A stretch of DNA of 64,000 nt from Escherichia phage SkaterBoy_Bas90. The first letter of the stretch is position 1. Each line of letters opens with the position of its first letter. The DNA lies in sequence record PQ850626.1. One strand, written 5' to 3'. The position numbers were made by a program, and so were the translations under genes. The notes below the pieces were generated by a model. That model had not been told where the DNA came from, did no database searches, and saw nothing but the letters and a program-made list of their open reading frames with translations. This document shows, in pieces, positions 7,657-64,000 of this stretch.

Positions 7657-10215
7657 ATGATCGTTTATAATAACCAAACACCTGATGCAGTGAATAACGT
7701 TGGGCAGTTTGGTGCTACTGAAGGCTCTATCGGAGCTTACAAGCAAGCAGCAGAATATGCAGCTGACTCCAAATATTGGGCACTGCTAGCAGAATCTAAG
7801 TTTGGTACAATTGATGATTTAATCGCTGAAGTAGAACGTCTATATCAACAGGGTGTTCTGATGAAGCAGGATATTGAAGATCTTAAGCAGGATTTTAAGG
7901 ATCAAGATGCTCGTTTGATGACTCTGATTGCCCAAACCAACGCAGCAGTATCGGATGCTAATAATGCCGTTGCTCTCATTAACCAAAAACTTATTGAAGT
8001 CCAGAATCAGCTTGATGTTCTGTTAGGAATGTCTGTTGATGTAACAACTCTCCCTCCGGGAACTCCAGCTACTGGCTCTTTTAATCCTAACACTGGTGTA
8101 ATCTCTTTAGGTATTCCAGAAGGTGATCCCGGAAAAGATGGTTCTGTTAAGGATTTGGATACAGCACCTACAGGTGTTCCAGAGCTAGGTGATTTAGGTT
8201 TCTATGTTGACAAAGATGACAACACCGTCCACAAAACTACTCTAGATAACATTGCTAACTTAATCCCATCTGTCCGTTCTGTCTCTATTAACGGCGGTCC
8301 AGCTCTTGATGGAGAGGTTGCTCTAACGCTTAACAAAGAGACGGTAGGTTTAGGAAATGTTCTGAACGTTGCTCAGTACAGTCGTCAAGAGATTAATGAC
8401 AAGTTTGATAAAACCACCAAGACATATCAATCTAAAGCAGAAGCTGATGCTGACGCTCAGTATCGCCAAGTTGGTGAGAAGGTCTTAGTTTGGGAAGCTA
8501 CTAAGTATGAATTTTATACTGTTGCTGCTAACAAAACATTAACTCCTGTTAAAACTGAAGGTAGAATTCTTACTGTTAATTCCCGTTCTCCAGACTCCAG
8601 TGGTAATATTGACATTACCATTCCAACAGGAAACCCTTCTCTATATCTTGGTGAGATGGTAATGTTCCCTTATGACCCAACAAAGAATATCTCCTATCCG
8701 GGCGTTCTTCCAGCCGATGGTCGTCTAGTGTCTAAAGAGTCTGCTTCAGATTTAGGCCCATCCCTTGTCAGTGGACAACTTCCTGTTGTTTCTGAAACTG
8801 AATGGCAAGCAGGGGCTAAACAATACTTCTCTTGGGGTAAATTGGCAGATGGTATTACCGATGCAGATTCTACTAATTTTATCAACATTCGACTTCCTGA
8901 TTGGACTGGAGGGGAGGCAATAAGAGCACCAGATTCTGATAAAGACTCTCAGTACAATGGGTCTGTACAGGCTCAGAAACCTTATGTTGTTACTGTAAAT
9001 AACCAAGCTCCTGATGAGATTACTGGTAATGTGAACATCTCCAGATCAATTTTAGGTGCTGCCGCTTCTGGTACAAACTCTGATATAACATCCCTCACGG
9101 GACTCACTACAGCACTGTCTGTCACACAAGGAGGCACTGGAGCTAAAAATGCTGCTAGTGCTCGTTCTAATCTAGGTCTAAGCTCCATAGCTACACTCAA
9201 CACAATTCCTATAGCTAATGGTGGTACAGGGGCAACTACTGTTGATGCTGCTCGTTCCAATTTATCTATAGATAGAGTTGATCAAGCCTCTGGGGAGAGT
9301 AGATTACTATCTCCTAACAAAGAAACCTACCTCTTTGTGGATAATAATGGGTGGGGATGTTACAGTACCTCGCCTGGAAGAGTTGGCGATTTGGCTCTAG
9401 GTGTTGAAAGAGGAGGCACTGGAGCTAAAAATGCTGCTAGTGCTCGTTCTAATCTAGGGTTGGGAAGTGTTTCTACTCTGGATAATGTACCTATTGCTAA
9501 TGGTGGGACAGGGGCTGGAGATGCTGCTGGTGCAAGGTTCAATATTGGAGCGCTAAGTAACACCCCAGCAAATTCAGGCGTAGGTGGTACTGGGGATCGT
9601 GTCCAACATGCCTCCGGGAACGGCCTGTTTACTTTAGACTTGTTTAACTGCTACTGGTATATGCAGCCAGAGGATACTAACTTCTGGATTGCCCACGGTG
9701 TGTCATATGCAGGGTCTGGTGGCGAAGCCTCACAATACGGTCGCATATCTTACGCAATAAAGATTGCAGACGGAACAATAAAATATGTCCATTGTCTTAC
9801 AAACAAAAACACCACTGTTGATGTAAACGGATTTATCAAAGCGGCATCTCCGGTAGTTCATATTTACTCCGACGGTCGATATGAGACGAACGAGGAATCT
9901 GAGGGGGTTAATGTCATTCGGCAAGGTGTTGGTGAGTACTTGATTACCGGTTGCCTTGGCTTAAACGCAGATGCAAAATGGGGAGGCATTGACGGCGGCT
10001 TTGAAATCCCTACTGACCGCAACAAACAACCTAGGGTTTGGCTGGACTATGAGATTAAAGAAGATGGTTCTATTTTAGTTAAAACCTATCACAGAACCCA
10101 TCCAACCTCTCCGGTTTTTGCTAGAAATGAGATAGAAGGTTTTTCTGACGGTGATCCTATTGATATCCCGAGTGATGCTTTTATTTCAGTTCGTGTTGAA
10201 ATGCCTTCTGAGTAA
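7657..10215 (+). CDS. tail fibre protein
   Basis: 852 aa; N-terminal coiled coil, collagen-like 'GIPEGDPGKDG', two copies of fibre repeat 'GGTGAKNAASARSNLGL...IANGGTGA'. Confidence 0.65.
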   Translation: MIVYNNQTPDAVNNVGQFGATEGSIGAYKQAAEYAADSKYWALLAESKFGTIDDLIAEVERLYQQGVLMKQDIEDLKQDFKDQDARLMTLIAQTNAAVSDANNAVALINQKLIEVQNQLDVLLGMSVDVTTLPPGTPATGSFNPNTGVISLGIPEGDPGKDGSVKDLDTAPTGVPELGDLGFYVDKDDNTVHKTTLDNIANLIPSVRSVSINGGPALDGEVALTLNKETVGLGNVLNVAQYSRQEINDKFDKTTKTYQSKAEADADAQYRQVGEKVLVWEATKYEFYTVAANKTLTPVKTEGRILTVNSRSPDSSGNIDITIPTGNPSLYLGEMVMFPYDPTKNISYPGVLPADGRLVSKESASDLGPSLVSGQLPVVSETEWQAGAKQYFSWGKLADGITDADSTNFINIRLPDWTGGEAIRAPDSDKDSQYNGSVQAQKPYVVTVNNQAPDEITGNVNISRSILGAAASGTNSDITSLTGLTTALSVTQGGTGAKNAASARSNLGLSSIATLNTIPIANGGTGATTVDAARSNLSIDRVDQASGESRLLSPNKETYLFVDNNGWGCYSTSPGRVGDLALGVERGGTGAKNAASARSNLGLGSVSTLDNVPIANGGTGAGDAAGARFNIGALSNTPANSGVGGTGDRVQHASGNGLFTLDLFNCYWYMQPEDTNFWIAHGVSYAGSGGEASQYGRISYAIKIADGTIKYVHCLTNKNTTVDVNGFIKAASPVVHIYSDGRYETNEESEGVNVIRQGVGEYLITGCLGLNADAKWGGIDGGFEIPTDRNKQPRVWLDYEIKEDGSILVKTYHRTHPTSPVFARNEIEGFSDGDPIDIPSDAFISVRVEMPSE
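9130..9176. repeat. 47-bp perfect direct repeat, copy 1 (within tail fibre gene)
   Basis: ggaggcactggagctaaaaatgctgctagtgctcgttctaatctagg. Confidence 0.8.
9412..9458. repeat. 47-bp perfect direct repeat, copy 2 (282 bp downstream, in frame)
   Basis: identical 47-mer. Confidence 0.8.
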
Positions 10216-10224
10216 TTTAACAAT

Positions 10225-10240
10225 GCTCCCTTCGGGGGGC
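10225..10240 (+). other. UUCG-tetraloop GC hairpin after tail fibre gene (weak terminator or RNA-stability element)
   Basis: GCTCCC-TTCG-GGGGGC, only 3 T after. Confidence 0.4.
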
Positions 10241-10255
10241 TTTAAGGAGATTTAA

Positions 10256-12448
10256 ATGTCTAGAGAATTAATGCCCAAATCTGGTATAATGATGCCTCAT
10301 GTGGTTGTAACCAGAGACGCGGCTGTTGTTGGGGTTTCTACTGTAGATGGACAGGCTGGAGCTATTAACCTCACCGGAAAATATTTACAGAAAACCGACG
10401 CAGCTGCTACCTATCAAACTAAAACAGAGGGTGCATCTAAAGATTTTGTGCTGGATTCGATTCAACCTATTATGTCTGGTGCGCTGTTCCGAGAAGACCC
10501 TTGGGTTGTTAATGATACCCCATTCCGTTCTACTGGAGCTAATGGTGTAGAATCAGTTGATATGATGAAAGTTACTACTGATAACTCAATCAAGATTGGT
10601 AGTTATGCCTCTTCAGTTCAAGGTGTAGAGATTCATTCTGCTGGTCGTCTTCAGGTTGTTGACCAGAATGACTCTGGGGTAGAAACTAAGTATCCAGTTT
10701 ATTCTAAACGTTACCGTCCTGAGATTGAGGATTTGCCTTTTGCTGCAATTGGTTCTTATGTTAAAGACTCTAAAGGTCGTACGGTAGGTGTTACTCGTAC
10801 AGGGATTAACTCTGATATCAAACAGCTCACACAGAAAGTTACTTTCACTCAACCAGTAACTGTCCCTGATGCAGTTGGTGATTATGATGCAGTCACTTTG
10901 AGACAGCTTCGAAACAGTGGTGGTGGCTCTGGTGGTCCTACGATGAGCGGTATCTCTAACTTTGGTATCGGTGATTTTCACTTACGGGATAGTCGAGCTT
11001 TCATCCCAGCTTTTGAAGTGTTTTCTGATGGTCAGCTTCTAAATCGTGCAGACTATCCAGACCTGTGGGCTTATGCACAGCTGTTATCTCCTATTGAAGA
11101 CTCTTTGTGGCTAGAAGACCCTTATCAAAGAGGTAGATACTCTAAGGGTGATGGCACAACTACTTTCCGTGTTCCAGACCGAAATGGTATTCAGCCTAAC
11201 TCCCTTCAGGCTCTTTATGGACGAGGTGATGGTGGTGCTTCCGCAGCTAATGGTCAAGTATTTGATTCTGCGGCCCCAGACATTGTCGGCGCTGTTGCAG
11301 CATACTCTGCTGGAACTTATGCCCAGCTTTTTGGAGTAGCTACCAATGCATTTTCATCTAGTAATGCCTTCTTTCCTGACGGTACAGGGGATACAATACC
11401 TCCGGGGTCTGGGCCAGTCGATGGTCGATATAACACTGTTGAGTTTAAGGCTTCCAAATATAATGGAATTTATGGTCGCAGTAACACAGAGATTATGGGT
11501 CGTAACTTTGTTGGTGTGTGGACTATTCGCGCTAATGGTGGGTTTGTCGCTGCTAACACTTCTTGGAGTGTCATTAATAGCGATAGCGCAGCTCCGGCTC
11601 TAAATACTTCTGTGGTTGGTGGTAAGGTAGAATCTAAATATACTAACCCAACCTCTTCCCAATATGCTCGTATTTATGTTTCCTCTTCTTGGGGAAGTGT
11701 TTGCTCTGCCGTGATTGAAGCACAAGGTGCAAGTGTTCACGCTTATAAGTTTTATGAGGATGGCACTGTTGATTTTAGGCAGTCTGGTAAGACAAACCCA
11801 TTCCGCATGTACACACCAACTGGAACTTGGACTGGACTGACGGATGCGGGGCCAAACAATTTAACCACCAATGGAATGGATAGGGTGGCGATTTCTAGTG
11901 GCTCTGACACAGTGGTGCGTGGGTACTCTATTGGAGGATCTAAACCTAATGGTTATCCAACCAAGGTTGGGTATCATATGTATTTGCCGGGAAGTGCCGC
12001 CTTCGGTGTCGCCTGTACAACTATTGGAGGAGACAACGGAAAGTTCTGTCGATATTTTTACGACATAGACGGGCAGATGTATGGCTCAACTGATTATGGA
12101 AACTTTAGCTATACAAAGAGTGGTGTCTCGGATGAAAACCTGAAACATAACATTGTTGATATTGATGCAGAAAGAGCTATTGAAGTAATAAAAGGACTGA
12201 AGTTCAAATCCTTTGTTTACAACGATGATGAGAAGAATCGATCTCGTCGTGGTATCATTGCACAGCAGGCAGAGACGGTAGAACCTCTGTATGTCAAGAC
12301 TCGCAAATACCCAGGAATGGAGAAAGGCTCTCCAGAAATTGAGCAGAAAGAGCTAGACACTACTCCAATGCTCCTTGACACTATGCAAGTAGTTCAAGAC
12401 CTTCTGAAGCGTATTGAAGTTCTGGAATCGAAGTTAGCAGAGAAGTAA
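10256..12448 (+). CDS. tail fibre/spike with C-terminal intramolecular chaperone (endosialidase-chaperone, S74-like) domain
   Basis: 730 aa; C-terminal 'SDENLKHNIVDIDAERAIEVIKGLKFKSFVY...' matches autoproteolytic chaperone signature. Confidence 0.7.
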   Translation: MSRELMPKSGIMMPHVVVTRDAAVVGVSTVDGQAGAINLTGKYLQKTDAAATYQTKTEGASKDFVLDSIQPIMSGALFREDPWVVNDTPFRSTGANGVESVDMMKVTTDNSIKIGSYASSVQGVEIHSAGRLQVVDQNDSGVETKYPVYSKRYRPEIEDLPFAAIGSYVKDSKGRTVGVTRTGINSDIKQLTQKVTFTQPVTVPDAVGDYDAVTLRQLRNSGGGSGGPTMSGISNFGIGDFHLRDSRAFIPAFEVFSDGQLLNRADYPDLWAYAQLLSPIEDSLWLEDPYQRGRYSKGDGTTTFRVPDRNGIQPNSLQALYGRGDGGASAANGQVFDSAAPDIVGAVAAYSAGTYAQLFGVATNAFSSSNAFFPDGTGDTIPPGSGPVDGRYNTVEFKASKYNGIYGRSNTEIMGRNFVGVWTIRANGGFVAANTSWSVINSDSAAPALNTSVVGGKVESKYTNPTSSQYARIYVSSSWGSVCSAVIEAQGASVHAYKFYEDGTVDFRQSGKTNPFRMYTPTGTWTGLTDAGPNNLTTNGMDRVAISSGSDTVVRGYSIGGSKPNGYPTKVGYHMYLPGSAAFGVACTTIGGDNGKFCRYFYDIDGQMYGSTDYGNFSYTKSGVSDENLKHNIVDIDAERAIEVIKGLKFKSFVYNDDEKNRSRRGIIAQQAETVEPLYVKTRKYPGMEKGSPEIEQKELDTTPMLLDTMQVVQDLLKRIEVLESKLAEK

Positions 12449-12540: not shown

Positions 12541-12759
12541 ATGAAAATGATGAAACAAGCTGCATATGGTTTAATATGTTTAGGCGCAGGTGTTGTGGTA
12601 TCCACCGCAGTTCCTGTAGGCGCAGTTCATCCATTAGTAACTGTCCCTGCTCCAGTAGAGAAGCTCAGCTCTCAATGTAAGCAGAGAACAATTCAAAATA
12701 ACTTAGTTGTTATTTGCCCTGATGCTGAATCTAACGCTCTGAGAAAGATACTACCTTAA
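12541..12759 (+). CDS. small secreted/membrane protein (possible single-TMD holin)
   Basis: 72 aa, strong SD TAGGAGA; N-terminal hydrophobic segment 'AAYGLICLGAGVVVSTAVPVGAV', charged C-terminus; immediately upstream of lysozyme. Confidence 0.4.
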   Translation: MKMMKQAAYGLICLGAGVVVSTAVPVGAVHPLVTVPAPVEKLSSQCKQRTIQNNLVVICPDAESNALRKILP

Positions 12760-12788
12760 TTTAAAGGGACCACAAAAGGAGGTTAGAA

Positions 12789-13280
12789 ATGGATAACGCC
12801 GCATTGCCACCTGTACAACTAAACTTAAGCCCAGCTGGAATGGAATTCATCATGAAGCATGAGGGTATGAGAACCAAGGCTTATAAAGATTCCGCAGGTA
12901 TCTGGACTATATGTGTAGGGGCTACGCGCGATATGAATGGTTATCCGGTTAGACAAGGATTAACGTATTCTATAGAGGATTGTCTAGCTCTGCTAGATAG
13001 AGACACACAAGACTCTGTTCGTGCTACTCAGAAGAACATAAAGGTTCCTTTACTAGTTCATGAGTTTGATGCACTCACTTCTTTCAACTTCAATGTTGGC
13101 AGTGGGGCTTTGAGCACATCTAAGTTAAGGAAGGTTATCAATGGAGAGGTGAAAGGGGATGTATATTCCGAATTTCTTCGTTGGGATAAAATAACGGTCA
13201 AGGGAGAGAAGCAGAGAAGTCAGGGTCTTCATAATAGAAGGGTTGCAGAAGCTGATCTTTACACCGAAGGTAAATATTAA
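12789..13280 (+). CDS. phage lysozyme (GH24-type)
   Basis: 163 aa; 'KHEGMRTKAYKDSAGIWTICVGAT' matches E...D...T catalytic region of T4/lambda-type lysozymes. Confidence 0.8.
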   Translation: MDNAALPPVQLNLSPAGMEFIMKHEGMRTKAYKDSAGIWTICVGATRDMNGYPVRQGLTYSIEDCLALLDRDTQDSVRATQKNIKVPLLVHEFDALTSFNFNVGSGALSTSKLRKVINGEVKGDVYSEFLRWDKITVKGEKQRSQGLHNRRVAEADLYTEGKY

Positions 13281-17100: not shown

Positions 17101-17123
17101 TTGCTGTTGGCGGGCGGAGATAA
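14106..17123 (+). CDS. large virion protein with tandem Ig-like (Big_2) domains
   Basis: 1005 aa; repeated ~80 aa S/T-rich units 'VTIRKGGTTTLTAVTGKTPVTWSSNNASIVSV...'. Confidence 0.6.
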   Translation: MALYPIKSLGAVGVIADQAPTDLAPNAFTNAINARFVEQRVFKTGGNAPLSYVDEDKDLTPLSFVSMPFDYYSAGNSFLVVGTNKKLYKLTDESLTDISRKVATVTKKASASIKIYPVVSQIVPKESTISMNFNQTKNLEVSLLPADANNTDLIWEVSNSSYGSITVDPSDSKLATLTSFEKEGNLVVTISTANESVVAQIAVNIIDGDSGIFLSQDTVTIRKGGTTTLTAVTGKTPVTWSSNNASIVSVTPNANSLTAVITANGEGNVTITADNGTKTASCEIVSIPQIDSISLSQSDVTVSRGSQYILTATLSPANAPNQNITWTSSNPNIATVSGTGTQGTINALLAGFTEITATTEEGSRVAVCTVRVDLAGRTMRTSAMAFAAPVSESVETQEEEVVTPPESEETVYFAEPTSGIDTSGMYEGNNFYDYSNVNDIEGFARASLLATPLSSVTLDIVSASLDVGEEIVITATASPEGDYSYQWSVDKTGYVSTTSVTGKSIKLVALRKGEINVTCTVSQMTQKDYDAFDDYPWYHAVISNCAVATTHYETPQVKEFESEYFVDLPGWGEQTVVDNDGNPSVKKFNWKCERVRSFNNRLFALNMREANASGVTTNYPLRLRWSNFANENKAPTLWDDFAYDRVVSSDLASNIVGQTQALENGYAGYIDLADSNGSLIDILPLKDYLFVYTEFETYIGSPTNNTYQPLMFKKLFNDSGILAPECVVEVEGSHFVVTQNDVILHNGATKKSIASNRVKNMLINEVCLVNPLATRVHLHQDKKEVWVLYVGPGEPKESFACTKAAVWNYEFDTWSFRTIPYAQCIGLVDPPVLERGPIWSDFQEITWDDPSIKELVWRKDATNFRQRVTIVGSFLKGFYQVDVGALDYFYDRLNDVVIEKPLEMRLERTGIDFDNVTNEWNQKHINRFRPQTTGSGTYIFEAGGSQFSNEYGHPHTSKTYTIGVDRHVSVRLNHPYLFYNVIDNDVNSNAAINGLTIEFAVGGRR

Positions 17124-17128
17124 CAACA

Positions 17129-17156
17129 AGGGGCTTCGTGCCCCTTTTATTGTTTT
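17129..17156 (+). terminator. rho-independent terminator
   Basis: AGGGGC-TTCGT-GCCCCT then ttttattgtttt. Confidence 0.7.
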
Positions 17157-17166
17157 GGAGGAACTT

Positions 17167-18135
17167 ATGGGTGCAGGTGGTTTTCGTAAGAACACTGGTC
17201 GCAATAACACCACACTCCCGTACAACGTTGGGTTTCTCAATAATGTACAGGACACAGAAACATATAACGTAGCCGTGTATGATGAATTACAAAAAGTTAG
17301 CACAGCTACTAACCAAATGTTCCAAGCTATAGATGAAATTCACGAAGAGATTGATGTTCGTATTAAAGCTCTTAATGCAATGAATCTACAATTCGATGAG
17401 CTTGAGAATAGAATTACTACAGAGATAGAGACAGCTATTGCCGATATCCAAACACAGATGGGGAACCTCTCCACTGAAGATATTTGGGATAATTCTGTTC
17501 AACCTCCTGTAAAATTAGAAAGCACTGTATCTGGCTTTAAGACAAGTATTGAAGGTAACACAACCAAGATTCAAACTGTAGAAGGTATCGTCAACGACCA
17601 AGGTCAAGAGATTGCTTTGGTTCAGACAGAGATTCAAAATATTAATGGAAGCCTATCTCAGTATATGAAGCTCTCTGAATATGAAGCTACGTGGGGTATT
17701 AACTCTACAGTAAACGGAAGATATGCTGGGGTCAAGTTAACTAACAACGGAACAAACAGTCAATTCCAAGTAACAGCTAACAAGTTTATTGTTGGTGATG
17801 GCAGCTCTGGTAACACACCTTTTGTGTTTGAGGGTGGTAGGGCTAGGATGGAGTTCGCTGACATAAAGAACGTCAACATCACAACAGCTCAGATTGCCAA
17901 CGCTAGGATCCAATGGGCACAGATTGATAACGTATCTATCTCCAATGCTCAGATTCAGAACTTGTCAGCGGATAAGATTACTGCTGGCTCTATGTGGGGT
18001 TCTAACTGGAGACTTACTGTTGGTGGGGACTTTGTTATGGGTGGCACAGGTGGGGCACAATTGTGGATGAATGGTAACAGAATAGACTTCTACGATGGAA
18101 GCGGTGCTCTGAGAATCAGGATAGGGAGTTGGTAA
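17167..18135 (+). CDS. tail fibre/tail tip protein
   Basis: track ORF 17101-18135; start moved to ATG 17167 (SD GGAGG 5 nt upstream, after terminator). Confidence 0.5.
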   Translation: MGAGGFRKNTGRNNTTLPYNVGFLNNVQDTETYNVAVYDELQKVSTATNQMFQAIDEIHEEIDVRIKALNAMNLQFDELENRITTEIETAIADIQTQMGNLSTEDIWDNSVQPPVKLESTVSGFKTSIEGNTTKIQTVEGIVNDQGQEIALVQTEIQNINGSLSQYMKLSEYEATWGINSTVNGRYAGVKLTNNGTNSQFQVTANKFIVGDGSSGNTPFVFEGGRARMEFADIKNVNITTAQIANARIQWAQIDNVSISNAQIQNLSADKITAGSMWGSNWRLTVGGDFVMGGTGGAQLWMNGNRIDFYDGSGALRIRIGSW

Positions 18136-18136
18136 T

Positions 18137-19168
18137 ATGGCATATGGAATATGGACACAACCAGTAGGGCCGGGGCCAGCAACCCCCGCTCCCTTATTTA
18201 TTGATAGCGGAAGCACTTTCCCTCAGTTCAAGAATAGTATAAGAGGGAGTTTTAACTTTAATGGGGCTGGGAGATCTTTCCCTATTAGTGGATGGGATGG
18301 CAGTGGTCAGATAGTTATTGTTCCTACCGGTTCTTTATGCTGGCAATGGGAAGTCCCTCCTAACCTAGTTCCTGATGTTTATTGTGTGAATAACATCTAC
18401 GTAGAAAACAGTTCCTCTTTTAGAGTTACTCTGAATCAGAACCCCGGCAGTAACCCCTTATTTGACTGTGGGTTCAACGTATATCAAATATGGCCTAGAG
18501 CGGATAGGAATTACGGAATTACCTTTTCTAATACAGCAGACTACTTCTCGATATCTGATAGTGGGGTCGTCGGTCAATGTATTTGGGCTTGGCAGGGGAC
18601 TATAAACAATGCCCTCCAGATACCAAATATCGGTGGGTTCAATATGACCAATGCTGTTGTGTTTGCTAATTGGTCTGATGGAGGGATAGGACTGTCTTAT
18701 ACCTCTGATGACAGGGTTATTCGTGTTTATCAGAACAGACCTTACATAAACGGCAACACTAATGAGGGTGGTTCTGTGTTTGCTAGAGTTGCAGTATTCT
18801 GCAATGGAGCAGGAGTTCCGGAACATAATGGAGGTTTGAATATTTATTCTCCGGGTACCACGCAATGTGTCTTCTCTACTAACAGAACACCTTTCACTGT
18901 TGATACTTTTATAGGCTCAGGAGGTGGTAACACAGGAATGGCATACCCTATGATACCTCTTACCTCTGGAATAGGTGCGATAAAAGGCCAAGGCAGTGGA
19001 TGGAGATATCAGCAAATGAGATCTCACACAATGAGTGGCTCTAGCATAGGAACTGGCTATGGAAGGTATCTATTTCAGTGGGATCAAAATTACGACCTAG
19101 GGGCTGATACTGTAGTTAATTTGTCAGTTCCTGTAATAAATGCAGCTAAGGTTTTTGCTGGACTATAA
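18137..19168 (+). CDS. virion structural protein
   Basis: 343 aa, coupled to upstream gene. Confidence 0.45.
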   Translation: MAYGIWTQPVGPGPATPAPLFIDSGSTFPQFKNSIRGSFNFNGAGRSFPISGWDGSGQIVIVPTGSLCWQWEVPPNLVPDVYCVNNIYVENSSSFRVTLNQNPGSNPLFDCGFNVYQIWPRADRNYGITFSNTADYFSISDSGVVGQCIWAWQGTINNALQIPNIGGFNMTNAVVFANWSDGGIGLSYTSDDRVIRVYQNRPYINGNTNEGGSVFARVAVFCNGAGVPEHNGGLNIYSPGTTQCVFSTNRTPFTVDTFIGSGGGNTGMAYPMIPLTSGIGAIKGQGSGWRYQQMRSHTMSGSSIGTGYGRYLFQWDQNYDLGADTVVNLSVPVINAAKVFAGL

Positions 19169-23752: not shown

Positions 23753-26700
23753 ATGGCTAACATTAAACCGTGGGAAGAAGCTTCCAAAGCTCCTGCGTAT
23801 CTGAATGCCTCTCCGGAGCAACAAGCTCAAATGAGAGAACAATATAAGGCAGCAGGTGGCTCTATTCCTGAGGAACAACCAGTAGCACAACCACAACAAG
23901 AAGAACGTGGTGCTATAGGTGAGTTTGCTCAAGGTGTGTCAAATGCTCTTCAATCTGGTGGTGCAAATATTGCAGCTAGTGCTGCTAAAGGTATTGGTGG
24001 TTTAGTTGAGATTGGTGAGAATCTAGCTGGAGCACAAACTAGTTATGGTAAGCGTATCCAAGAGAACTCTCAGAACCTTCTGAAAGAACGTATGGATAAG
24101 ATTGAGGATGGGATTGGTAAAACTGTTGGTCAGTATGCTGGTGTTGCTGGTGATATCGGTTTGACAGTTGCTAACCCATTGGCTGCTGCTGCTATCATCG
24201 CAGGTCGTGAGACAGGTCGTGCATATGCAGACCAAACCCCTGAAGAGGGAGAAGATAAGTCTATTCTAGATGCAGCGTTAGTTGGTGGTGCTAACTATGC
24301 GGCTCAGAGAATCCTTCCGGGTGCTGTTGGTACAGCTGAGTCCACACTTGGACGTATTGGTCAGAACGTTGCTAGTAACGCAGTGGCTGGTGCTAAAGGT
24401 GGTGCTCTTGTGGGTGCTGCTGAAGCTCAGAATAAGCACGGAGATGACACAACATTTGCTAATGTATTAGAAGGTGCTATCGAAGAAGGTGCTATGGGTG
24501 CTGCATTCGGTGGTGCAGTTGGTGGGGTTCATGGTTTGATTAGCCGTCCGGATTCTGCTGTCTTCAAGAATACTCCAGAGTATGCGAAGACTGATATTGC
24601 TGCTGATGATGAACTAATTCGTAGTGCTAAGAATATTGATGAACTGAAAGAAGCTTACTCTAAAGCTGAAACTGCTAACGCTGCTTCTGCTCTTAACCTT
24701 CTGGATGAGAATGGATTCCGTATTACAGATGCTGTTGCTGTAGATTCTCCTGCCGCTCAGCGTATTCTTAATACTGACCAAGCTCGTGCTGAGAAAGCTG
24801 CTTCCGTTCAGAAAGAACATTCCAACATTCCGGGCCTCAACCCTTTAGCTTCTCCTGCTAAGACTCGTGGTAAAGCATTCGCTGATAACGAGCACAACCA
24901 GAAGCAGGCTGTTGCTATGAAGGATGCAATGGCTGACTACACCAAAGACAACACGAAAGCTCTTACAGATGTTCTAGATAATCTAGACCGTGAATTAACC
25001 TCTCTCCGAGCTTCTGGTGATTTTACTGGTAGTCCGATTGATATTAAGAACCGTACACAAGCTGACCGTGATTTCATTGATGCTTACAAGACTTTCTACA
25101 ATGAAGCAAATCGATTCAAAGCTCGTGATGGTGAAGACTTTAATAACTTTGTAGAGAAAGCTGCTGAACTACAGAAGATGGCTGATAATGTTTCTCCAGA
25201 GATGAAGAAAGCTATCGGTGGGTTGAAGAAACTGAAAGGTATGCCTGAAGGTTTTAATCCTATTCAAGATGCTTACACTCTGAACAATACAGCTAAGTTC
25301 ATGAGCAATCAAGACCGTGGTTGGACTTCCCTGACTGATGATGGATTCCGTGAGGCTTCTTCACCTAGTCTGGTAATGAACACTCTTGGTGCTGCTAAGT
25401 ATGCTCTGAATCGCTTCTCTTCTCAGCGTGCTCGCTCTCAACGTGTTAAGCAACAAGAATCTAACAGCGAAGCTATCCGCTCTCTTGCTCGTGGTGATTT
25501 GGAAGTTGCTCGTGCTAAATCTACTGCTGATGAAGCTCGTGCTAAAATGGAAGAAGAACCAGTTGTTGATGACATTAAATTTAAGACGCAAAATGACGTG
25601 GAAACCGAACCGGTTCGGGAGCCTTCTTCTAGTACTGTGACGGAAGAAAATCTTCCTTCTTCTGCTCCTCAAGAAACTCCTCTTACAGCTCGTGATTTAG
25701 TTGCGCAAAGACGCGCTATCCGTCAGGCTGAACAGCGTCGCGCTGAAGAAGAGGCATTGGCTGCTCAAGAAGCTCCGGTCGAACAAACTCCACAGGCTGA
25801 ACCTCTCCCTGCTCGTAACCCTCTAGAGGAGCGTCGTGCAATGGAACAGCAACGTGCTCAAGAAGAGGCCGCACAGGCTCCAGAACCAACCGTAGAGGAA
25901 CCAACAGTCAAAGCTGAGCCATTACCTGCTCGTGCTCCTAAAGCTCCTAAGGAAGCTGTACAGGACGTTAAACCGGCAAGTGGTGTAGAGCGTTTAGCTG
26001 CTATGTCAAGTGCTGCTCGTCAGGCTACTAAAGATCGTGCAGAACGCTTTGCTCGTTCTCTGTACTCTAAGGCTGCTAAAGCTAAAGCTACTGCTGAAAA
26101 CTTCTTGGCTTATAAAGGTGATCCTAAGGAATTGATGCGTCGTATCCGTCAGGAAGACAATGCTATCAACACTGAACGTCATGAAGAAATGGCTCGTAAC
26201 CAGCTGGCTTCTCAGCAAGGTATTGCTACTGCTAAGAACAACACTGTACGAACTAATTTTGCTGAATGGGTTAAAGAACGTGGTCTGCCAGAAGATATTG
26301 CCACTAAGGCATTACGTGCTGAAGAGAAAGGCTTAGGTGGGAACGTAACTAACTTAGATAGTCTGAAACGTCGTGCTGAAAGGTTGTATCAGAAGCAGCG
26401 TGAGGATGAGTTTGATAGGCTATATCAACAAGCTCTTGAAGAGAACAAAGCTTTCGATAATAAGAATGCCCCTAAGCTGGTTGACCAGAAGAAAGAGCTT
26501 CAGTCTGAGATTGATGCTTTGATTGATTCAGAACCTTTACGTCCTGCTCAGAAAGATGCTATGCGTAAGCTGATGAATGACTTTGTAGATGGGAAGTTTA
26601 AATCTTCAGAGAAGGCTGGTAGGGAAGAGGCTTTGGAAGTTGGTCAGATGAAGGATATTTGGGATGGGTTTATTAACACCTACAACAGAGAAGTGAATGC

Positions 26701-32525: not shown

Positions 32526-32526
<1 letters not shown>

Positions 32527-32786
32527 TATTCTATTCCACGCTCTTTCAGAGCTTCTAACAATCCATTGTGATTAGCAGCACATTCTGTGTACTGGTCCTG
32601 ATACCACTCCAACGTAGTGGCTAGTGCTTTTCCTTGAGCACTTTCTAAAAGAGGTAGGTCAACCCTACATTCAGCTTTTAGGTTTGTTGGTAAGGGCATT
32701 GATTGCCTGCTGTTGTCGCTCGTTGAACAAGCTGACATACTCATCACTAGCGCAGACATTATAAAAAACTGGTTTAGTTTTCTCAT
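32526..32786 (-). CDS. o-spanin (Rz1-like outer-membrane lipoprotein)
   Basis: internal ATG 32786 of track ORF 32526-32885; signal peptide with lipobox 'SMSAC', Pro/Cys-containing mature part; starts inside i-spanin gene in another frame. Confidence 0.5.
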
Positions 32787-33021
32787 AATGCATCTCTTTA
32801 TAAACGGTTTCCGTGTTCTTCTTCCAGTTAGATAAACCGGTAAGAACTCTCTGAGCAACTTCATCAGCTGCTCTACTTCTTTCAATCTCTAATTCTTGCT
32901 GGTGCTTCTCTTTGTCCAGATTACTGCTGTCTGTTTGATATTCGTTAAACTTCATACCACCAAAGAATACAAGAGCTGAGAAAACGATAAACCCTAAGTT
33001 ATCACTTAATGTGTTTTGCAT
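32671..33021 (-). CDS. i-spanin (Rz-like)
   Basis: N-terminal TMD 'LGFIVFSALVFFGG' then charged coiled coil; track GTG start 33045 lies inside the terminator hairpin, so ATG 33021 preferred. Confidence 0.5.
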   Translation of the reverse strand: MQNTLSDNLGFIVFSALVFFGGMKFNEYQTDSSNLDKEKHQQELEIERSRAADEVAQRVLTGLSNWKKNTETVYKEMHYEKTKPVFYNVCASDEYVSLFNERQQQAINALTNKPKS

Positions 33022-33030
33022 GTTGTCTCC

Positions 33031-33057
33031 AACGAAAAAAGCCACCCGGAGGTGGCT
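33031..33057 (-). terminator. rho-independent terminator after SSB
   Basis: AGCCACC-CGGA-GGTGGCT hairpin followed on minus strand by TTTTTTCGTT. Confidence 0.6.
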
Positions 33058-60771: not shown

Positions 60772-61003
60772 AGGGGAAATTCCTTAAAAAATTATGGCTG
60801 CGTAGAGGGAATTCCCTACGCAAATCGGGCCGCCCACAGAGAGGCGTCATAGTACTAAAAGGAGGAGAGAAGAGGGCTTATTTAGCTACCTTTTTCTGTC
60901 CGTTTACGAACCAGATAATTGAACCGTCAGGCTGTCGTTGACCGAAGCCTTTCTGGTTAATCATATCGTCATAAGAATATGCTTTACGTCTCATTTGTTT
61001 TCC

Positions 61004-61258
61004 CTACGAAGTTAAGATGATTTCAGCCTTAATAAACTTCTCACCAACAACCATATCACCAGAGATGACACGTAGTTCTCCAGTGCCTAGGTTAACAGCT
61101 CCAGCAGGTTGACAACCCCTGCTTTTAGCTGTCATCATATAAACCTTTTGATTTTGGCACTCTTGGAGAGTGAACACATCTGACATATTTAGATCTCTGA
61201 CGCGGAGGATTTTTTCCTCTTTGTCTTTAACTTTAATGTTAATAATGCTCATATGCAC
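61004..61258 (-). CDS. small paralog family C, copy 4
   Basis: 84 aa; shares K-rich N-terminus and '(V/I)..L..G..F' pattern with the three upstream genes. Confidence 0.45.
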   Translation of the reverse strand: MHMSIINIKVKDKEEKILRVRDLNMSDVFTLQECQNQKVYMMTAKSRGCQPAGAVNLGTGELRVISGDMVVGEKFIKAEIILTS

Positions 61259-61503
61259 TACTCCTGAACCACTGACATACGAATCATTTCTACCTGATCA
61301 TCAAGACCTTTAACAGATAACACACCTGTGGAAAGGTTTACCACAGGAACCCAACCACTGGCTATACGGATGTTACCAGAAGCATTTTCAACCCTCATGT
61401 AATACTGAGGAGAGGCACTTCCGTTCTGAACCACGAAAGGGTTTCCGGGAATGATTGTTTCCAATCGTACCGTATTATCCTTTTTCTTTGGGATGATTTT
61501 CAT
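61258..61503 (-). CDS. small paralog family C, copy 3
   Basis: 81 aa 'MKIIPKKKDNTVRLETIIPGNPF...'. Confidence 0.45.
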   Translation of the reverse strand: MKIIPKKKDNTVRLETIIPGNPFVVQNGSASPQYYMRVENASGNIRIASGWVPVVNLSTGVLSVKGLDDQVEMIRMSVVQE

Positions 61504-61751
61504 TGCGTATTATCCACCAAAAGTTCTGCTGATACAGGAACAACTCGGCACCAGATAGAAGGTGCTGTTACGTTACCATCGGATAGACGAAGAGTAATTG
61601 TTCGATCAGAGTTAACGGTTACATTAGGACTTTCAGACACAGACCCTTTAACATAGAGAGTAGCACTCTCAGGGAATTTAAACACTGCTCCGCTGGGGAG
61701 GGAGTTGAGATCAATCGTGGTCACTTCTTCTTTCTTGTGGGTAATCTTCAT
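61500..61751 (-). CDS. small paralog family C, copy 2
   Basis: 83 aa 'MKITHKKEEVTTIDLNSLPSGAVFKF...'. Confidence 0.45.
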   Translation of the reverse strand: MKITHKKEEVTTIDLNSLPSGAVFKFPESATLYVKGSVSESPNVTVNSDRTITLRLSDGNVTAPSIWCRVVPVSAELLVDNTQ

Positions 61752-62002
61752 TTAGAATCCTTAATAACGTTAGCTTCAACCTTAACAGGAATAACAGAGA
61801 TGCCCTCAACGGGGCCACTTAAGTGTCCATCTTCCAGTCTGACACACACGACTCGATCTCGTGCAACTTCTACCCAATTAGTAGATGCCGCAGTACAGAC
61901 CATATGAATTGGACCGTTCTCTTCCAGCCGGAAGGTATCGCCCTTCTTCAGAGTGTGGAGTTTCACAGTCTTGATAGTTTTGTTCAATTCGTTAACTTTC
62001 AT
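61748..62002 (-). CDS. small paralog family C, copy 1
   Basis: 84 aa 'MKVNELNKTIKTVKLHTLKKGDTFRLE...'. Confidence 0.45.
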   Translation of the reverse strand: MKVNELNKTIKTVKLHTLKKGDTFRLEENGPIHMVCTAASTNWVEVARDRVVCVRLEDGHLSGPVEGISVIPVKVEANVIKDSK

Positions 62003-62010
62003 ATTGATTC

Positions 62011-62322
62011 CTATTTAAGTTTGAGGCTAATGTTAAGGTGCATACATGCTCTGTTCTGTACAGCAGCATAACTTCTACCGAGCATGTCAGCCATTCTCTG
62101 AATAGACATGAACCCAGCATTACGGATAAGGAACTGGTCCTCTTCTTCAGACCATTTAACTCGGATTGAAGCTCTTGATATGCCGAATTTAGTGCAAGCT
62201 GTGTTAACAGCATTCTCCGTTACATTCATAATCTGAGCTACTTCTTGAACCGAGTACTCTTTGATTAGTCTCCGAAGATTTTCAATCTGCATCGGAGTCC
62301 ATATAGTTCTTCGTGCTTTCAT
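62011..62322 (-). CDS. double helix-turn-helix protein (two sigma-region-4-like HTH repeats), putative transcription regulator
   Basis: 'YSVQEVAQIMNVTENAVNTA' and 'MSIQRMADMLGRSYAAVQNRA'. Confidence 0.5.
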   Translation of the reverse strand: MKARRTIWTPMQIENLRRLIKEYSVQEVAQIMNVTENAVNTACTKFGISRASIRVKWSEEEDQFLIRNAGFMSIQRMADMLGRSYAAVQNRACMHLNISLKLK

Positions 62323-62676
62323 ACATCCTCCAATTAATTGTTAAAACTATCAGGGGAGAACACTAGCTCTGGGCCACGCTGTAGATATTGGCCTACCTTC
62401 CACAGCTAATCAGCTAATATACTCCCCTAATAGTTTATGAATAGGGGGAGGGGACGAATCCTCCCTTATCCTATTAGTTAATATTGCATGTAAGATCTAA
62501 CAATCGGTTGCCTTTGTAGGAATAAGCGTAAAGCCAATCCAGCACTAAACTCCCGCCCCCTTAGTGGGCTGGGTTATTAAAGGGTAACGCCCTTATGGGC
62601 TAGTTACATGAATGTTAGTTTGATAGGAGATCTGAAGTCCTATCTCAAAGGACTCTCGTAAGAATCCTTCACGATA
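62323..62676. other. ~350-bp ORF-free region rich in GC hairpins (regulatory region or candidate ncRNA)
   Basis: nested inverted repeats CTAATAG/CTATTAG and GGGAGG/CCTCCC; GCCC-TTAT-GGGC. Confidence 0.35.
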
Positions 62677-62817
62677 TTACTTATTCATCTCTCGTCGGCT
62701 ATCTCTCCAAGCCAACCAAGTGTAGGTTTTCAGTTCTTCAAAGTCTTCTGGAGAGAATAGATACTCTTTGAAGGTGTTCCCAAACCACTCTAAAAATTCT
62801 TCAGTCATAAGATTCTC

Positions 62818-62991
62818 TTAACAAGATTGGTCACACGGCTGATCACCACATGTTTTACAGATCACTGGTGAGTAACTACAGGCAGGATAAACAGACACCC
62901 CATCAAACGTCTCACATCCACAATCAGGACATGTACCGTTGGATTCCATGTCATCATCGTCATCTACTTCACCGCCACCAAAACAACTCAT
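62818..62991 (-). CDS. small Cys-rich zinc-ribbon protein (57 aa)
   Basis: hand-translated MSCFGGGEVDDDDDMESNGTCPDCGCETFDGVSVYPACSYSPVICKTCGDQPCDQSC; SD AAGGAG. Confidence 0.35.
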   Translation of the reverse strand: MSCFGGGEVDDDDDMESNGTCPDCGCETFDGVSVYPACSYSPVICKTCGDQPCDQSC

Positions 62992-63000
62992 ACAGGCTCC

Positions 63001-63222
63001 TTAGTAAACTAAACCTGTAGCCTTTGCATCAGGCTGAGGGACTACTTTTGCACTAGGGCGATAGCCATCCACTGAGCCGTTCCAAAGATTGACACAGGTG
63101 ATATATCCATCGTCTATGATGTCTGTTTTAATCCAGAAGTGTTTATCATGACCAAAAATACTTCCGTTTGGCAGCGTGGACAATTCAACAGTTTTAAGTG
63201 ACTGCTTAGAGTCTAGTTTCAT
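63001..63222 (-). CDS. small paralog family C, distal copy
   Basis: 73 aa 'MKLDSKQSLKTVELSTLPNGSIFGHD...'. Confidence 0.45.
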   Translation of the reverse strand: MKLDSKQSLKTVELSTLPNGSIFGHDKHFWIKTDIIDDGYITCVNLWNGSVDGYRPSAKVVPQPDAKATGLVY

Positions 63223-63231
63223 ATAAGTTCC

Positions 63232-63429
63232 TTAATATACCAAACCATGTAAAAGAAACATCCTCTTTGTAAGCTCTGCTTTAGCTCTGTAATAAGCCTT
63301 AGAACCTAACAGGCGGCTCTTAACAAAGAACTTAATGTCATTGCTAACATCTTGTATTAAACGCTCCTGTACAGTTTCTGAGGAGTTATTAATCGAATCA
63401 ATTAACACCTTTGTAGATGTGTAATTCAT
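63232..63429 (-). CDS. hypothetical protein (65 aa; internal ATG of track ORF 63232-63621)
   Basis: ATG 63429 sits 1 nt after lipoprotein stop. Confidence 0.35.
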   Translation of the reverse strand: MNYTSTKVLIDSINNSSETVQERLIQDVSNDIKFFVKSRLLGSKAYYRAKAELTKRMFLLHGLVY

Positions 63430-63430
63430 A

Positions 63431-63730
63431 TCACCACTCCTTACCGGTTGTAATCGTAGAGCCACCACACCACAATGCTGTATCAATAACAACATTATCC
63501 GGTGTAGACTTCTCTTCGTTGATAGAAGGGTTAGCATTAGAACAGGTTGCTCCGTTCCATCGCATATCAATTTCACCAGAAGGAATCTTCTCACCCTTAT
63601 GCCAGCGAGAAACACAAACACCTTCCACTGCTACTGCACACCATCCATCAGGACGGCTCTGTACGCAGCCTGTAAGGGCTATGCAGACAAGGAAGATACA
63701 GATTAAGGATATTACACCACCCCAACTCAT
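63431..63730 (-). CDS. Cys-rich outer-membrane lipoprotein (possible receptor-blocking/superinfection-exclusion protein)
   Basis: 99 aa; strong SD GGAGG; signal peptide with lipobox 'ALTGC', five further Cys. Confidence 0.55.
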   Translation of the reverse strand: MSWGGVISLICIFLVCIALTGCVQSRPDGWCAVAVEGVCVSRWHKGEKIPSGEIDMRWNGATCSNANPSINEEKSTPDNVVIDTALWCGGSTITTGKEW

Positions 63731-63870
63731 AATTACCTCCTATTAGATTTGGTGGACTATCTGGAATCGAACCAGAAGCTCACTAAGAAAGTAATTCCCA
63801 CTGTTATAAAAGCACTTGCCTCAACAGGGATACACTAACTCTGGTGCCGCACCCATACTAGCCCTAAATG

Positions 63871-63946
63871 TGGTGCGCCCTACAGGACTCGAACCTGTAA
63901 CCAATAGCTTAGAAGGCTACTGCTCTATCCATTGAGCTAAGAGCGC
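63871..63946 (-). tRNA. tRNA-Arg (anticodon UCU), CCA encoded
   Basis: hand-folded cloverleaf: acceptor GCGCTCT/AGGGCGC, D-arm GCTC-AATGGATA-GAGC, anticodon arm GTAGC-CTTCTAA-GCTAT, T-arm ACAGG-TTCGAGT-CCTGT, discriminator A + CCA. Confidence 0.85.
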
Positions 63947-64000
63947 AGAATTATTTAGATCATATCTCGCTTGGTGATATGACCACATGTTTTACATCGA

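Follow-up and report, generated by a model that had tools for sequence, protein, structure and literature searches.

Near one end of the window (the whole stretch of DNA analysed here, 64,000 nt from Escherichia phage SkaterBoy_Bas90, PQ850626.1) lies a small leftward gene for a predicted lipoprotein, which raises the question of what such a protein does in the infected cell and on which outer-membrane target it might act. The first-pass annotation had proposed a factor that inactivates the phage receptor and so excludes superinfecting phage. Read directly, the open reading frame starts with ATG and encodes a 99-aa precursor with a 78-aa mature part; the precursor sequence is MSWGGVISLICIFLVCIALTG up to the predicted cleavage site and CVQSRPDGWCAVAVEGVCVSRWHKGEKIPSGEIDMRWNGATCSNANPSINEEKSTPDNVVIDTALWCGGSTITTGKEW from Cys22 onward. 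The features of the locus are as follows.

63431..63730, minus strand: lipoprotein gene, Rtp45 family / Pfam PF24052 (profile, alignment, orthologs)
63735..63741, minus strand: Shine-Dalgarno sequence AGGAGGT, 4 nt before the ATG (sequence read directly)
63665..63730, minus strand: signal peptide, aa 1-21, plus the codon of the predicted lipidated Cys22; lipobox LTG-C (sequence)
63545..63655, minus strand: conserved Rtp45-like core, aa 26-62, including the first strand of the long hairpin (alignment, AF2)
63467..63544, minus strand: Cys63...Cys88 insertion around a 24-aa loop, predicted hairpin tip (alignment, AF2)
63434..63466, minus strand: conserved C-terminal strand, aa 89-99, GGS.ITTGKEW, hairpin return strand (alignment, AF2)
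63871..63946, minus strand: tRNA-Arg(TCT), 140 nt upstream of the lipoprotein gene and in the same direction (tRNA scan)

The strong Shine-Dalgarno sequence noticed earlier is thus AGGAGGT, 4 nt upstream of the ATG, and the lipobox noticed with it is present as L19-T20-G21-C22, preceded by a hydrophobic stretch. The mature length of 78 aa was also correct, but the five additional cysteines credited to the mature part are four (Cys31, Cys39, Cys63, and Cys88); Cys11 and Cys16 lie within the signal peptide, and Cys22 is the residue predicted to be lipidated. The n-region of the signal peptide contains neither Lys nor Arg, and the siphophage relatives of the protein differ in this respect; this lack of basic residues counts against the reading preferred below. 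Under the Lol sorting rule, Asp at position +2 keeps a lipoprotein in the inner membrane; since the +2 residue here is Val rather than Asp, sorting to the outer membrane is expected. The base composition of the gene is unremarkable. A sigma-70 scan around the gene returned fewer sites than expected from shuffled sequences (10 versus 15.5), so a dedicated promoter is not supported. A terminator-like hairpin within the open reading frame was weak (3 GC pairs) and was taken as chance.

Profile and structure searches placed the protein in a single family. It matched the PF24052 profile ("Phage lipoprotein family"; cut-off, 27 bits) with an E value of 7.4e-35 and 119.2 bits over residues 3-99, covering profile positions 1-80 of 80, and it matched phrog_4281 with an E value of 2e-33. 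Rtp45 of coliphage Rtp (UniProt Q333D9; PDB 9RPS chain D) scored 128 bits on the same Pfam profile. When the protein was compared with all PDB sequences using phmmer, the sole real match was 9rps_D, "Phage lipoprotein" (E = 8.9e-14); Armadillo-repeat entries matching residues 63-98 were rejected, since their scores were summed from sub-threshold repeats with no significant stretch. The multiple alignment gave 44% full-length identity to Rtp45 and 24 invariant columns, both disulfide cysteines included, which places the window lipoprotein closer to Rtp45 than is the superinfection-exclusion (SE) protein of phage Oekolampad, at 35% identity (PMC12685063). The shared motif reads R-P-D-G-W-C31-A ... 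G-x-C39-V ... W ... G ... P-x-G-E-x-D-x-R ... G ... G ... G-x-E-W. Cys31 and Cys39 were invariant in both alignments, including one of 40 sequences, and align with Cys30-Cys38 of Rtp45; by this correspondence the window lipoprotein would form a Cys31-Cys39 disulfide.

The AF2 model of the protein (pLDDT, 77) contains strands at residues 31-35, 38-44, and 47-50, followed by a long hairpin formed by residues 52-65 and 86-98. In a Foldseek search of the PDB, the only meaningful match of this model was 9rps_D (probability, 1.0; target-normalised TM score, 0.79; the runner-up had an E value of 4.3), to be read alongside the report that AF predictions are unreliable for Rtp45 itself (PMC12685063). 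The Rtp45-type family is small and phage restricted, comprising 20 clusters at 50% identity among 1.84 billion representatives. These comparisons support assigning the window protein, over its full length, to the Rtp45 family, with LptDE, the LPS-export translocon, as its predicted target rather than a TonB-dependent transporter.

What is known of Rtp45 gives this assignment its functional content. In the cryo-EM structure of Rtp45 on Shigella LptDE(M) (Dunbar et al., PNAS 2025; PMC12685063), the lipoprotein occupies a site between LptE and LptM on the periplasmic rim of LptD. Its fold contains a Cys30-Cys38 disulfide, and a long, partly beta-stranded hairpin runs up through the LptD lumen. 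When Rtp45 binds, extracellular loop 4 moves by as much as 20 A, a displacement incompatible with binding of the phage receptor-binding protein (RBP) (PMC12685063). The case for exclusion by Rtp45 consists of LptDE binding together with this structural rationale (PMC12685063). Masking of LptDE is feasible because a cell contains only ~400-600 copies of LptD/E (PMC12685063). The earlier proposal of a receptor-inactivating, superinfection-excluding lipoprotein therefore gains support from homology to Rtp45 (phmmer E = 9e-14, 44% identity, TM score of 0.79) and from the genomic context described below.

The first-pass annotation had drawn its comparison with T5 Llp, and here a distinction has to be made between function and descent. 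T5 Llp (PDB 8A60 and 7QJF) is likewise a small, early outer-membrane lipoprotein with a disulfide. Llp binds the periplasmic face of its own receptor and alters the extracellular loops, so that the RBP is blocked and progeny are spared adsorption to debris. Nevertheless, when our 40-sequence alignment was compared with Llp (query sequence verified against 8a60_B) using hhalign, only the signal peptide aligned (41% probability, 11% identity), and no Pfam family matched T5 Llp. Since the alignment is confined to the signal peptide and Llp belongs to no Pfam family, the resemblance holds as a functional analogy and fails as a family relationship. The exclusion factor Cor of T1, phi80, and N15 is also a small lipoprotein, and its gene belongs to the J-like/RBP locus in small siphophages; Cor has historically been grouped with Rtp45 and acts on FhuA. 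Homology to T1 Cor was rejected, given that Cor scored 17.7 bits on PF24052, below the cut-off, and aligned by hhalign over residues 1-26 only, which is again the signal peptide. An Llp-type or Cor-type inactivator of a TonB-dependent transporter such as FhuA or BtuB would share the small size, the periplasm-facing outer-membrane location, the disulfide, and the early timing expected of the window protein, but these signal-peptide-only alignments, together with the LptDE binding of its specific homolog Rtp45, make such a function very improbable. The systems also differ in mechanism and layout: Llp targets FhuA, a TonB-dependent transporter, through long-range allostery, whereas Rtp45 displaces loops from within the LptD lumen (PMC12685063), and T5 llp adjoins its RBP gene (oad/pb5), which the window lipoprotein gene does not.

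The genomic setting was consistent with an early function. Positions 61000-64000 of the window are 100% identical to Escherichia phage vB_EcoP_DE5 (MW741821; Gordonclarkvirinae, genus Kuravirus) and 91-98% identical to ShigP1, MN03, SU10, and others. Kuraviruses are phiEco32-like podophages with prolate C3 heads. Orthologs of the lipoprotein in phiEco32 (phi32_106) and SU10 (gp104) are both annotated as a "putative (phage) lipoprotein," and Bas88_0091 and the DE5 coding sequence are both annotated as "hypothetical." When records were counted by portal identity, the lipoprotein was kept in ~85 of ~98 Gordonclarkvirinae records; this conservation, the 119-bit PF24052 match, and the phrog_4281 match together exclude a chance open reading frame. 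The gene lies within a leftward cluster of small genes, and its neighbours are small early open reading frames and the tRNA. A second tRNA upstream was unsupported by ARAGORN, even at relaxed settings, and by Rfam. The placement in an early region beside a tRNA, as claimed in the first-pass annotation, is borne out by the SU10 ortholog, since gp104 falls inside SU10 CDS 69-125, which form the early class (PMC4281155), and by the tRNA-Arg(TCT) only 140 nt away.

A small lipoprotein with several cysteines might also serve as the outer-membrane spanin (o-spanin) or as another lysis lipoprotein, particularly as the Kuravirus papers name just a holin and an endolysin. The lysis genes of the window, however, are found elsewhere.

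12541..13280, plus strand: holin and endolysin
32671..33045, minus strand: i-spanin, phrog_1152, E = 3e-37 (PHROG profile)
32526..32786, minus strand: o-spanin with lipobox MSA-C, overlapping the i-spanin (lipobox scan with a relaxed pattern)

This overlapped i-spanin/o-spanin pair at 32526..33045 bears out the earlier remark that the lipoprotein gene is far from the spanins. Beside the lipoprotein gene, no i-spanin partner with a transmembrane domain or coiled coil was found, and the lipoprotein itself has no C-terminal transmembrane domain, for which reason a u-spanin was rejected as well. With only 4 Pro residues in its 78-aa mature part, it is not proline rich. Its gene is in the early region, its closest homolog was solved on LptDE, and family members in siphophages coexist with annotated spanins. 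Because a separate spanin pair is present and family members occur alongside spanins in siphophages, the o-spanin reading fails; the view that the protein is unlikely to be an o-spanin, also put forward in the first-pass annotation, can be stated more strongly, as the lysis function is already effectively refuted and next to no weight is left to it.

Having placed the protein in the Rtp45 family, we compared it with Rtp45 and the Oekolampad SE protein (bas18_0026). All three have a lipobox signal peptide, the RPDGWC...GxC knot, and a C-terminal beta-hairpin ending in G.KEW; they belong to the same Pfam and PHROG families, and the genome in each case also encodes a DUF6453 RBP. The window lipoprotein differs from Rtp45 in being encoded by a podovirus (Kuravirus) rather than a small siphovirus, in the 45 kb that separate its gene from the RBP homolog, which is not adjacent as in the case of Rtp45, and in a signal peptide lacking a basic residue together with a hypervariable stretch of 24 aa inserted between two cysteines at the tip of the hairpin.

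This insertion, bracketed by Cys63 and Cys88, was found in Kuravirus proteins and in ~100-kb metagenomic phages with SU10-type portals. Its length among podophage members is 16, 18, 23, 24, or 33 residues, in contrast to the 2-7-aa turn without Cys that occupies the same position in Rtp45 and all siphophage members. Among Kuravirus-type sequences, the majority-residue fraction was 0.40 in the loop versus 0.88 in the scaffold, and residues 66-85 form the low-confidence tip of the hairpin in the AF2 model. The two bracketing cysteines probably add a second disulfide, Cys63-Cys88, to the one predicted at the N terminus. If the Rtp45 binding mode is kept, the modelled loop would reach higher within the LptD lumen, in the direction of the extracellular loops.

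Since Rtp45 on LptDE is incompatible with binding of the phage RBP, a central question is whether the window also encodes an RBP of the matching type. Two adjacent genes of the window bear on this question.

17101..18135, plus strand: tail needle, orthologous to SU10 gp18 (annotated start probably 17167), on which the RBP is proposed to dock (profiles, alignment)
18137..19168, plus strand: DUF6453 / phrog_1265 RBP homolog, 343 aa, SU10 gp19 ortholog; proposed cognate RBP (profiles, AF2)

When Rtp44 and ACG-M12 gp41 were used as tblastn queries, both matched the window at 18236..19135, nearly full length (E = 3e-10 and 3e-11, respectively); HK578_023 as a query gave no significant match in the window. 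The gp19 homolog scored 84.6 bits on PF20051 (DUF6453; cut-off, 25 bits) and had an E value of 1e-108 on phrog_1265, and Rtp44 belongs to the same Pfam and PHROG families. By phmmer, it matched the Oekolampad RBP chain 9rpt_C with an E value of 1.9e-9. Its AF2 model (pLDDT, 84; pTM, 0.86) had a single Foldseek match in the PDB, again 9rpt_C, the LptD-bound RBP (E = 5.5e-13; TM score, 0.81), and the runner-up had an E value of 0.08. The protein has no transmembrane segment despite its database label of "membrane protein." It thus resembles Rtp44 and the Oekolampad RBP (PDB 9RPT, 9RPW, and 9RQI) in family and in its position directly after a J-like distal fibre module, although it is only 22-25% identical to them and is partnered with a podovirus needle.

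The needle gene strengthens this comparison. Its product carries the Pfam domain Phage_Tail_Tip and aligns, through to the C terminus, with the final ~270 aa of J-like proteins from T1, HK578, ACG-M12, and Rtp (E = 7e-8 to 6e-5), and the ATG of the gp19 homolog follows the needle stop codon by 1 nt. The distal J module is regarded as the non-covalent docking site of dedicated RBPs in small siphophages, in which the allele at the RBP locus predicts the receptor "without exception" (PMC8594841). The separation of lipoprotein and RBP genes in the window has a parallel in Klebsiella Webervirus, where a DUF6453 gene begins 1 nt after the J-like gene and the lipoprotein lies 10 kb off among replication genes; since this layout is also split, adjacency to the RBP is not universal in the Rtp45 family. 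More broadly, the lipoprotein and DUF6453 families are found in the same phage groups, and gp19 is present in ~93 of the ~98 Gordonclarkvirinae records (counted by portal identity).

Because the same genome encodes a matching RBP type behind a J-like needle, we consider it most likely, with a probability of roughly 60%, that the early outer-membrane lipoprotein binds LptDE as Rtp45 does and acts as the Kuravirus's own exclusion factor. In the sequence of events that we infer, which includes lipidation, LptDE binding, a function for the loop, and use of LptD as receptor by the Kuravirus, the gene would be expressed early, and its product would be processed by Sec, Lgt, and LspA and delivered by the Lol pathway to the inner leaflet of the outer membrane. 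The N-terminal knot, stapled by the Cys31-Cys39 disulfide, would dock on the periplasmic rim of LptD, and the long beta-hairpin would rise through the lumen of the barrel, forcing the extracellular loops of LptD into a shape unusable by DUF6453-type RBPs. The extra 24-residue loop, closed by its own disulfide, would reach further towards the cell surface. With the ~400-600 LptDE complexes per cell masked, superinfection would be stopped and progeny would not be wasted on debris; LptD-dependent siphophages would also be excluded, as a by-product.

It follows from this scheme that LptD may be the terminal receptor of Kuraviruses. These phages require O-antigen, and their terminal receptor has been assumed to be the LPS core, bound by short tail fibres (PMC11990801, PMC9509320). 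Neither the need for O-antigen nor this assumption excludes LptD, a protein that is essential and therefore invisible to knockout screens. In the openly searchable literature, we found no paper that ties Kuraviruses to LptD, Rtp45, or DUF6453.

A different possibility is that the lipoprotein binds LptDE and excludes only competing LptD-dependent siphophages, with Kuraviruses not being LptD users themselves and gp19 having a role outside the virion. The SU10 data speak for it in several ways. Two studies of SU10 virions did not detect gp19, which is also the main caveat to the preferred reading: it was not found by the cryo-EM study and is absent from the 2014 proteome, in which gp11-13, gp16-18, and gp20-24 were all detected. 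Its low Lys and Arg content, which leaves ~6 suitable tryptic peptides, and its expected copy number of 1-3 would account for this absence only in part. Resolution at the SU10 needle reached only 10-15 A, and the cryo-EM paper does not discuss gp19. Besides the O-antigen dependence, two other fibre sets have already been assigned as RBPs (PMC11990801, PMC9509320), and in tomograms more than one SU10 particle, indeed several, can be seen injecting DNA into the same cell (PMC9509320). The lipoprotein and gp19 alleles also showed no co-variation among Kuraviruses (KBNP1711, 96% versus 63%; Bas88, 60% versus 88%); this result fits a block directed at LptD and not at any one RBP allele, and it lends no positive support to the pairing.

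Weighing against exclusion of competitors only, gp19 is retained in nearly all of the Gordonclarkvirinae records counted above, is translationally coupled to the needle gene in the late tail operon, stands behind a J-like distal fibre module in just the arrangement seen in siphophages, and has a predicted fold that matches an LptD-bound RBP. To our knowledge, moreover, no non-virion function has been described for DUF6453. On balance, we regard a competitor-only role as unlikely.

A second alternative accepts LptDE as the target and concerns the consequence of binding: the lipoprotein might mainly modulate or plug LptDE, slowing LPS and O-antigen export or altering outer-membrane permeability, with exclusion as a side effect. 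The Rtp45 hairpin does fill the LptD lumen, which is the path taken by LPS (PMC12685063), and the Kuravirus hairpin tip is larger by 16-33 residues. Expression of the Oekolampad homolog in E. coli was unsuccessful, which might reflect toxicity, but Rtp45 was co-overexpressed with LptDE and no toxicity was reported (PMC12685063). Furthermore, LPS already at the surface stays there for the length of a lytic cycle (PMC11990801 makes this point as well), and the lipoprotein family always occurs together with a DUF6453 RBP, an association that points to receptor masking. We therefore consider a primary effect on LptDE function improbable, and receptor exclusion by the Kuravirus lipoprotein remains the preferred reading.

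The most complete version of this preferred reading makes further commitments and is offered tentatively, at somewhat under even odds. In it, LptD would be bound by the gp19 homolog, seated on the J-like needle, and the early lipoprotein would serve as the exclusion factor paired with that RBP. By plugging the LptD lumen all the way to the cell surface, the stapled loop would take the Rtp45 mechanism a step further. A podovirus needle would, in this view, have acquired a siphophage RBP/SE module. Relative to Rtp45, what is new is the podovirus context, the unlinked gene, and the disulfide-stapled, hypervariable hairpin tip.

Kuraviruses are common, broad-host-range coliphages that have repeatedly been isolated for therapy and biocontrol. 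The lipoprotein and the overlooked tail gene together suggest that these therapeutically used podophages dock on LptD, a protein that is essential, conserved, costly to mutate, and an antibiotic target. The first three of these properties would make a podovirus that depends on LptD attractive for phage steering. If true, dependence on LptD would explain why knockout screens have yielded only O-antigen mutants. The analysis assigns a probable function to two genes annotated as "hypothetical" or "membrane protein" in ~100 sequenced phages, and it suggests that the SU10 needle tip has a component that has so far been missed. Since LptD is an antibiotic target, the lipoprotein may also be of interest as a natural variant of a peptide scaffold that binds within the LptDE lumen. 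Finally, the lipoprotein and gp19 make the identity of the Kuravirus terminal receptor a directly testable hypothesis.

The lipoprotein, a 99-residue member of the Rtp45 family and candidate superinfection-exclusion (SE) factor, begins with a signal peptide whose n-region, MSWGGVISL, is common to all Kuravirus-type members and contains no basic residues.

63668..63730, minus strand, lipoprotein signal peptide

Two cysteines lie in the h-region of the Kuravirus-type proteins, after this n-region. In contrast, the siphophage members of the family start with MK.. or MT..K.

Upstream, a spacer separates tRNA-Arg(TCT) from the Shine-Dalgarno sequence of the lipoprotein gene.

63745..63870, minus strand, 125-nt spacer with a tRNA-like 3' part

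The spacer ends in TCTGGTTCGATTCCAGATAGTCCACCA, a perfect tRNA-like T-arm, acceptor strand and CCA, and a near-complementary 5' acceptor strand, GGGCTAG, is found ~118 nt upstream. Neither ARAGORN, including its relaxed and pseudogene settings, nor Rfam called a tRNA in this stretch, which may represent a second tRNA that has been disrupted or has degenerated. The stretch is absent from phiEco32, where tRNA-Arg lies 22 nt from the lipoprotein gene, and in Bas88 a small open reading frame occupies its place.

Two genes that match PHROGs without known function directly follow the lipoprotein gene.

63232..63429, minus strand, 65-aa product, phrog_13462
63001..63222, minus strand, 73-aa product, phrog_6570

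Both are kept together with the lipoprotein gene in phiEco32, SU10 and Bas88. We found no hint of a functional link between them and the lipoprotein. The GenBank record of phage vB_EcoP_DE5 (MW741821) carries an UNVERIFIED flag, and its coordinates are circularly permuted with respect to those of the window, with record position 24598 corresponding to window position 61000.

A classic two-component spanin with overlapping genes was identified at 32526..33045 (minus strand).

32671..33045, minus strand, i-spanin, 124 aa, phrog_1152 (E = 3e-37)
32526..32786, minus strand, o-spanin, 86 aa, lipobox MSA|C

The pair is placed among middle genes, ~19 kb from the holin/endolysin pair (12541..13280), and the published Kuravirus accounts examined name only holin and endolysin as lysis genes.

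The proposed receptor-binding protein (RBP), the DUF6453 homolog of SU10 gp19 (18137..19168, plus strand), is highly variable across the subfamily (46 to 99.7% identity; portal, at least 93%), and among kuraviruses its variation is mosaic with respect to the alleles of the lipoprotein. Host-recognition proteins typically show such a pattern. The database label of gp19 is "membrane protein," yet a hydrophobic segment is absent.

Uncultured ~100-kb phages with an SU10-type portal (L009-L011, ENA/Logan contigs of 49 to 100 kb) carry an 87-aa lipoprotein, P0066, with the Cys-bracketed hairpin-tip loop, encoded at 10001-10264 among small genes. Since the longest contig recorded for a gp19-like protein, P0093, is identical in length to that for P0066 (100,570 bp), the two are probably encoded on one contig. 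On this basis, the RBP/SE pair appears to reach beyond the Gordonclarkvirinae.
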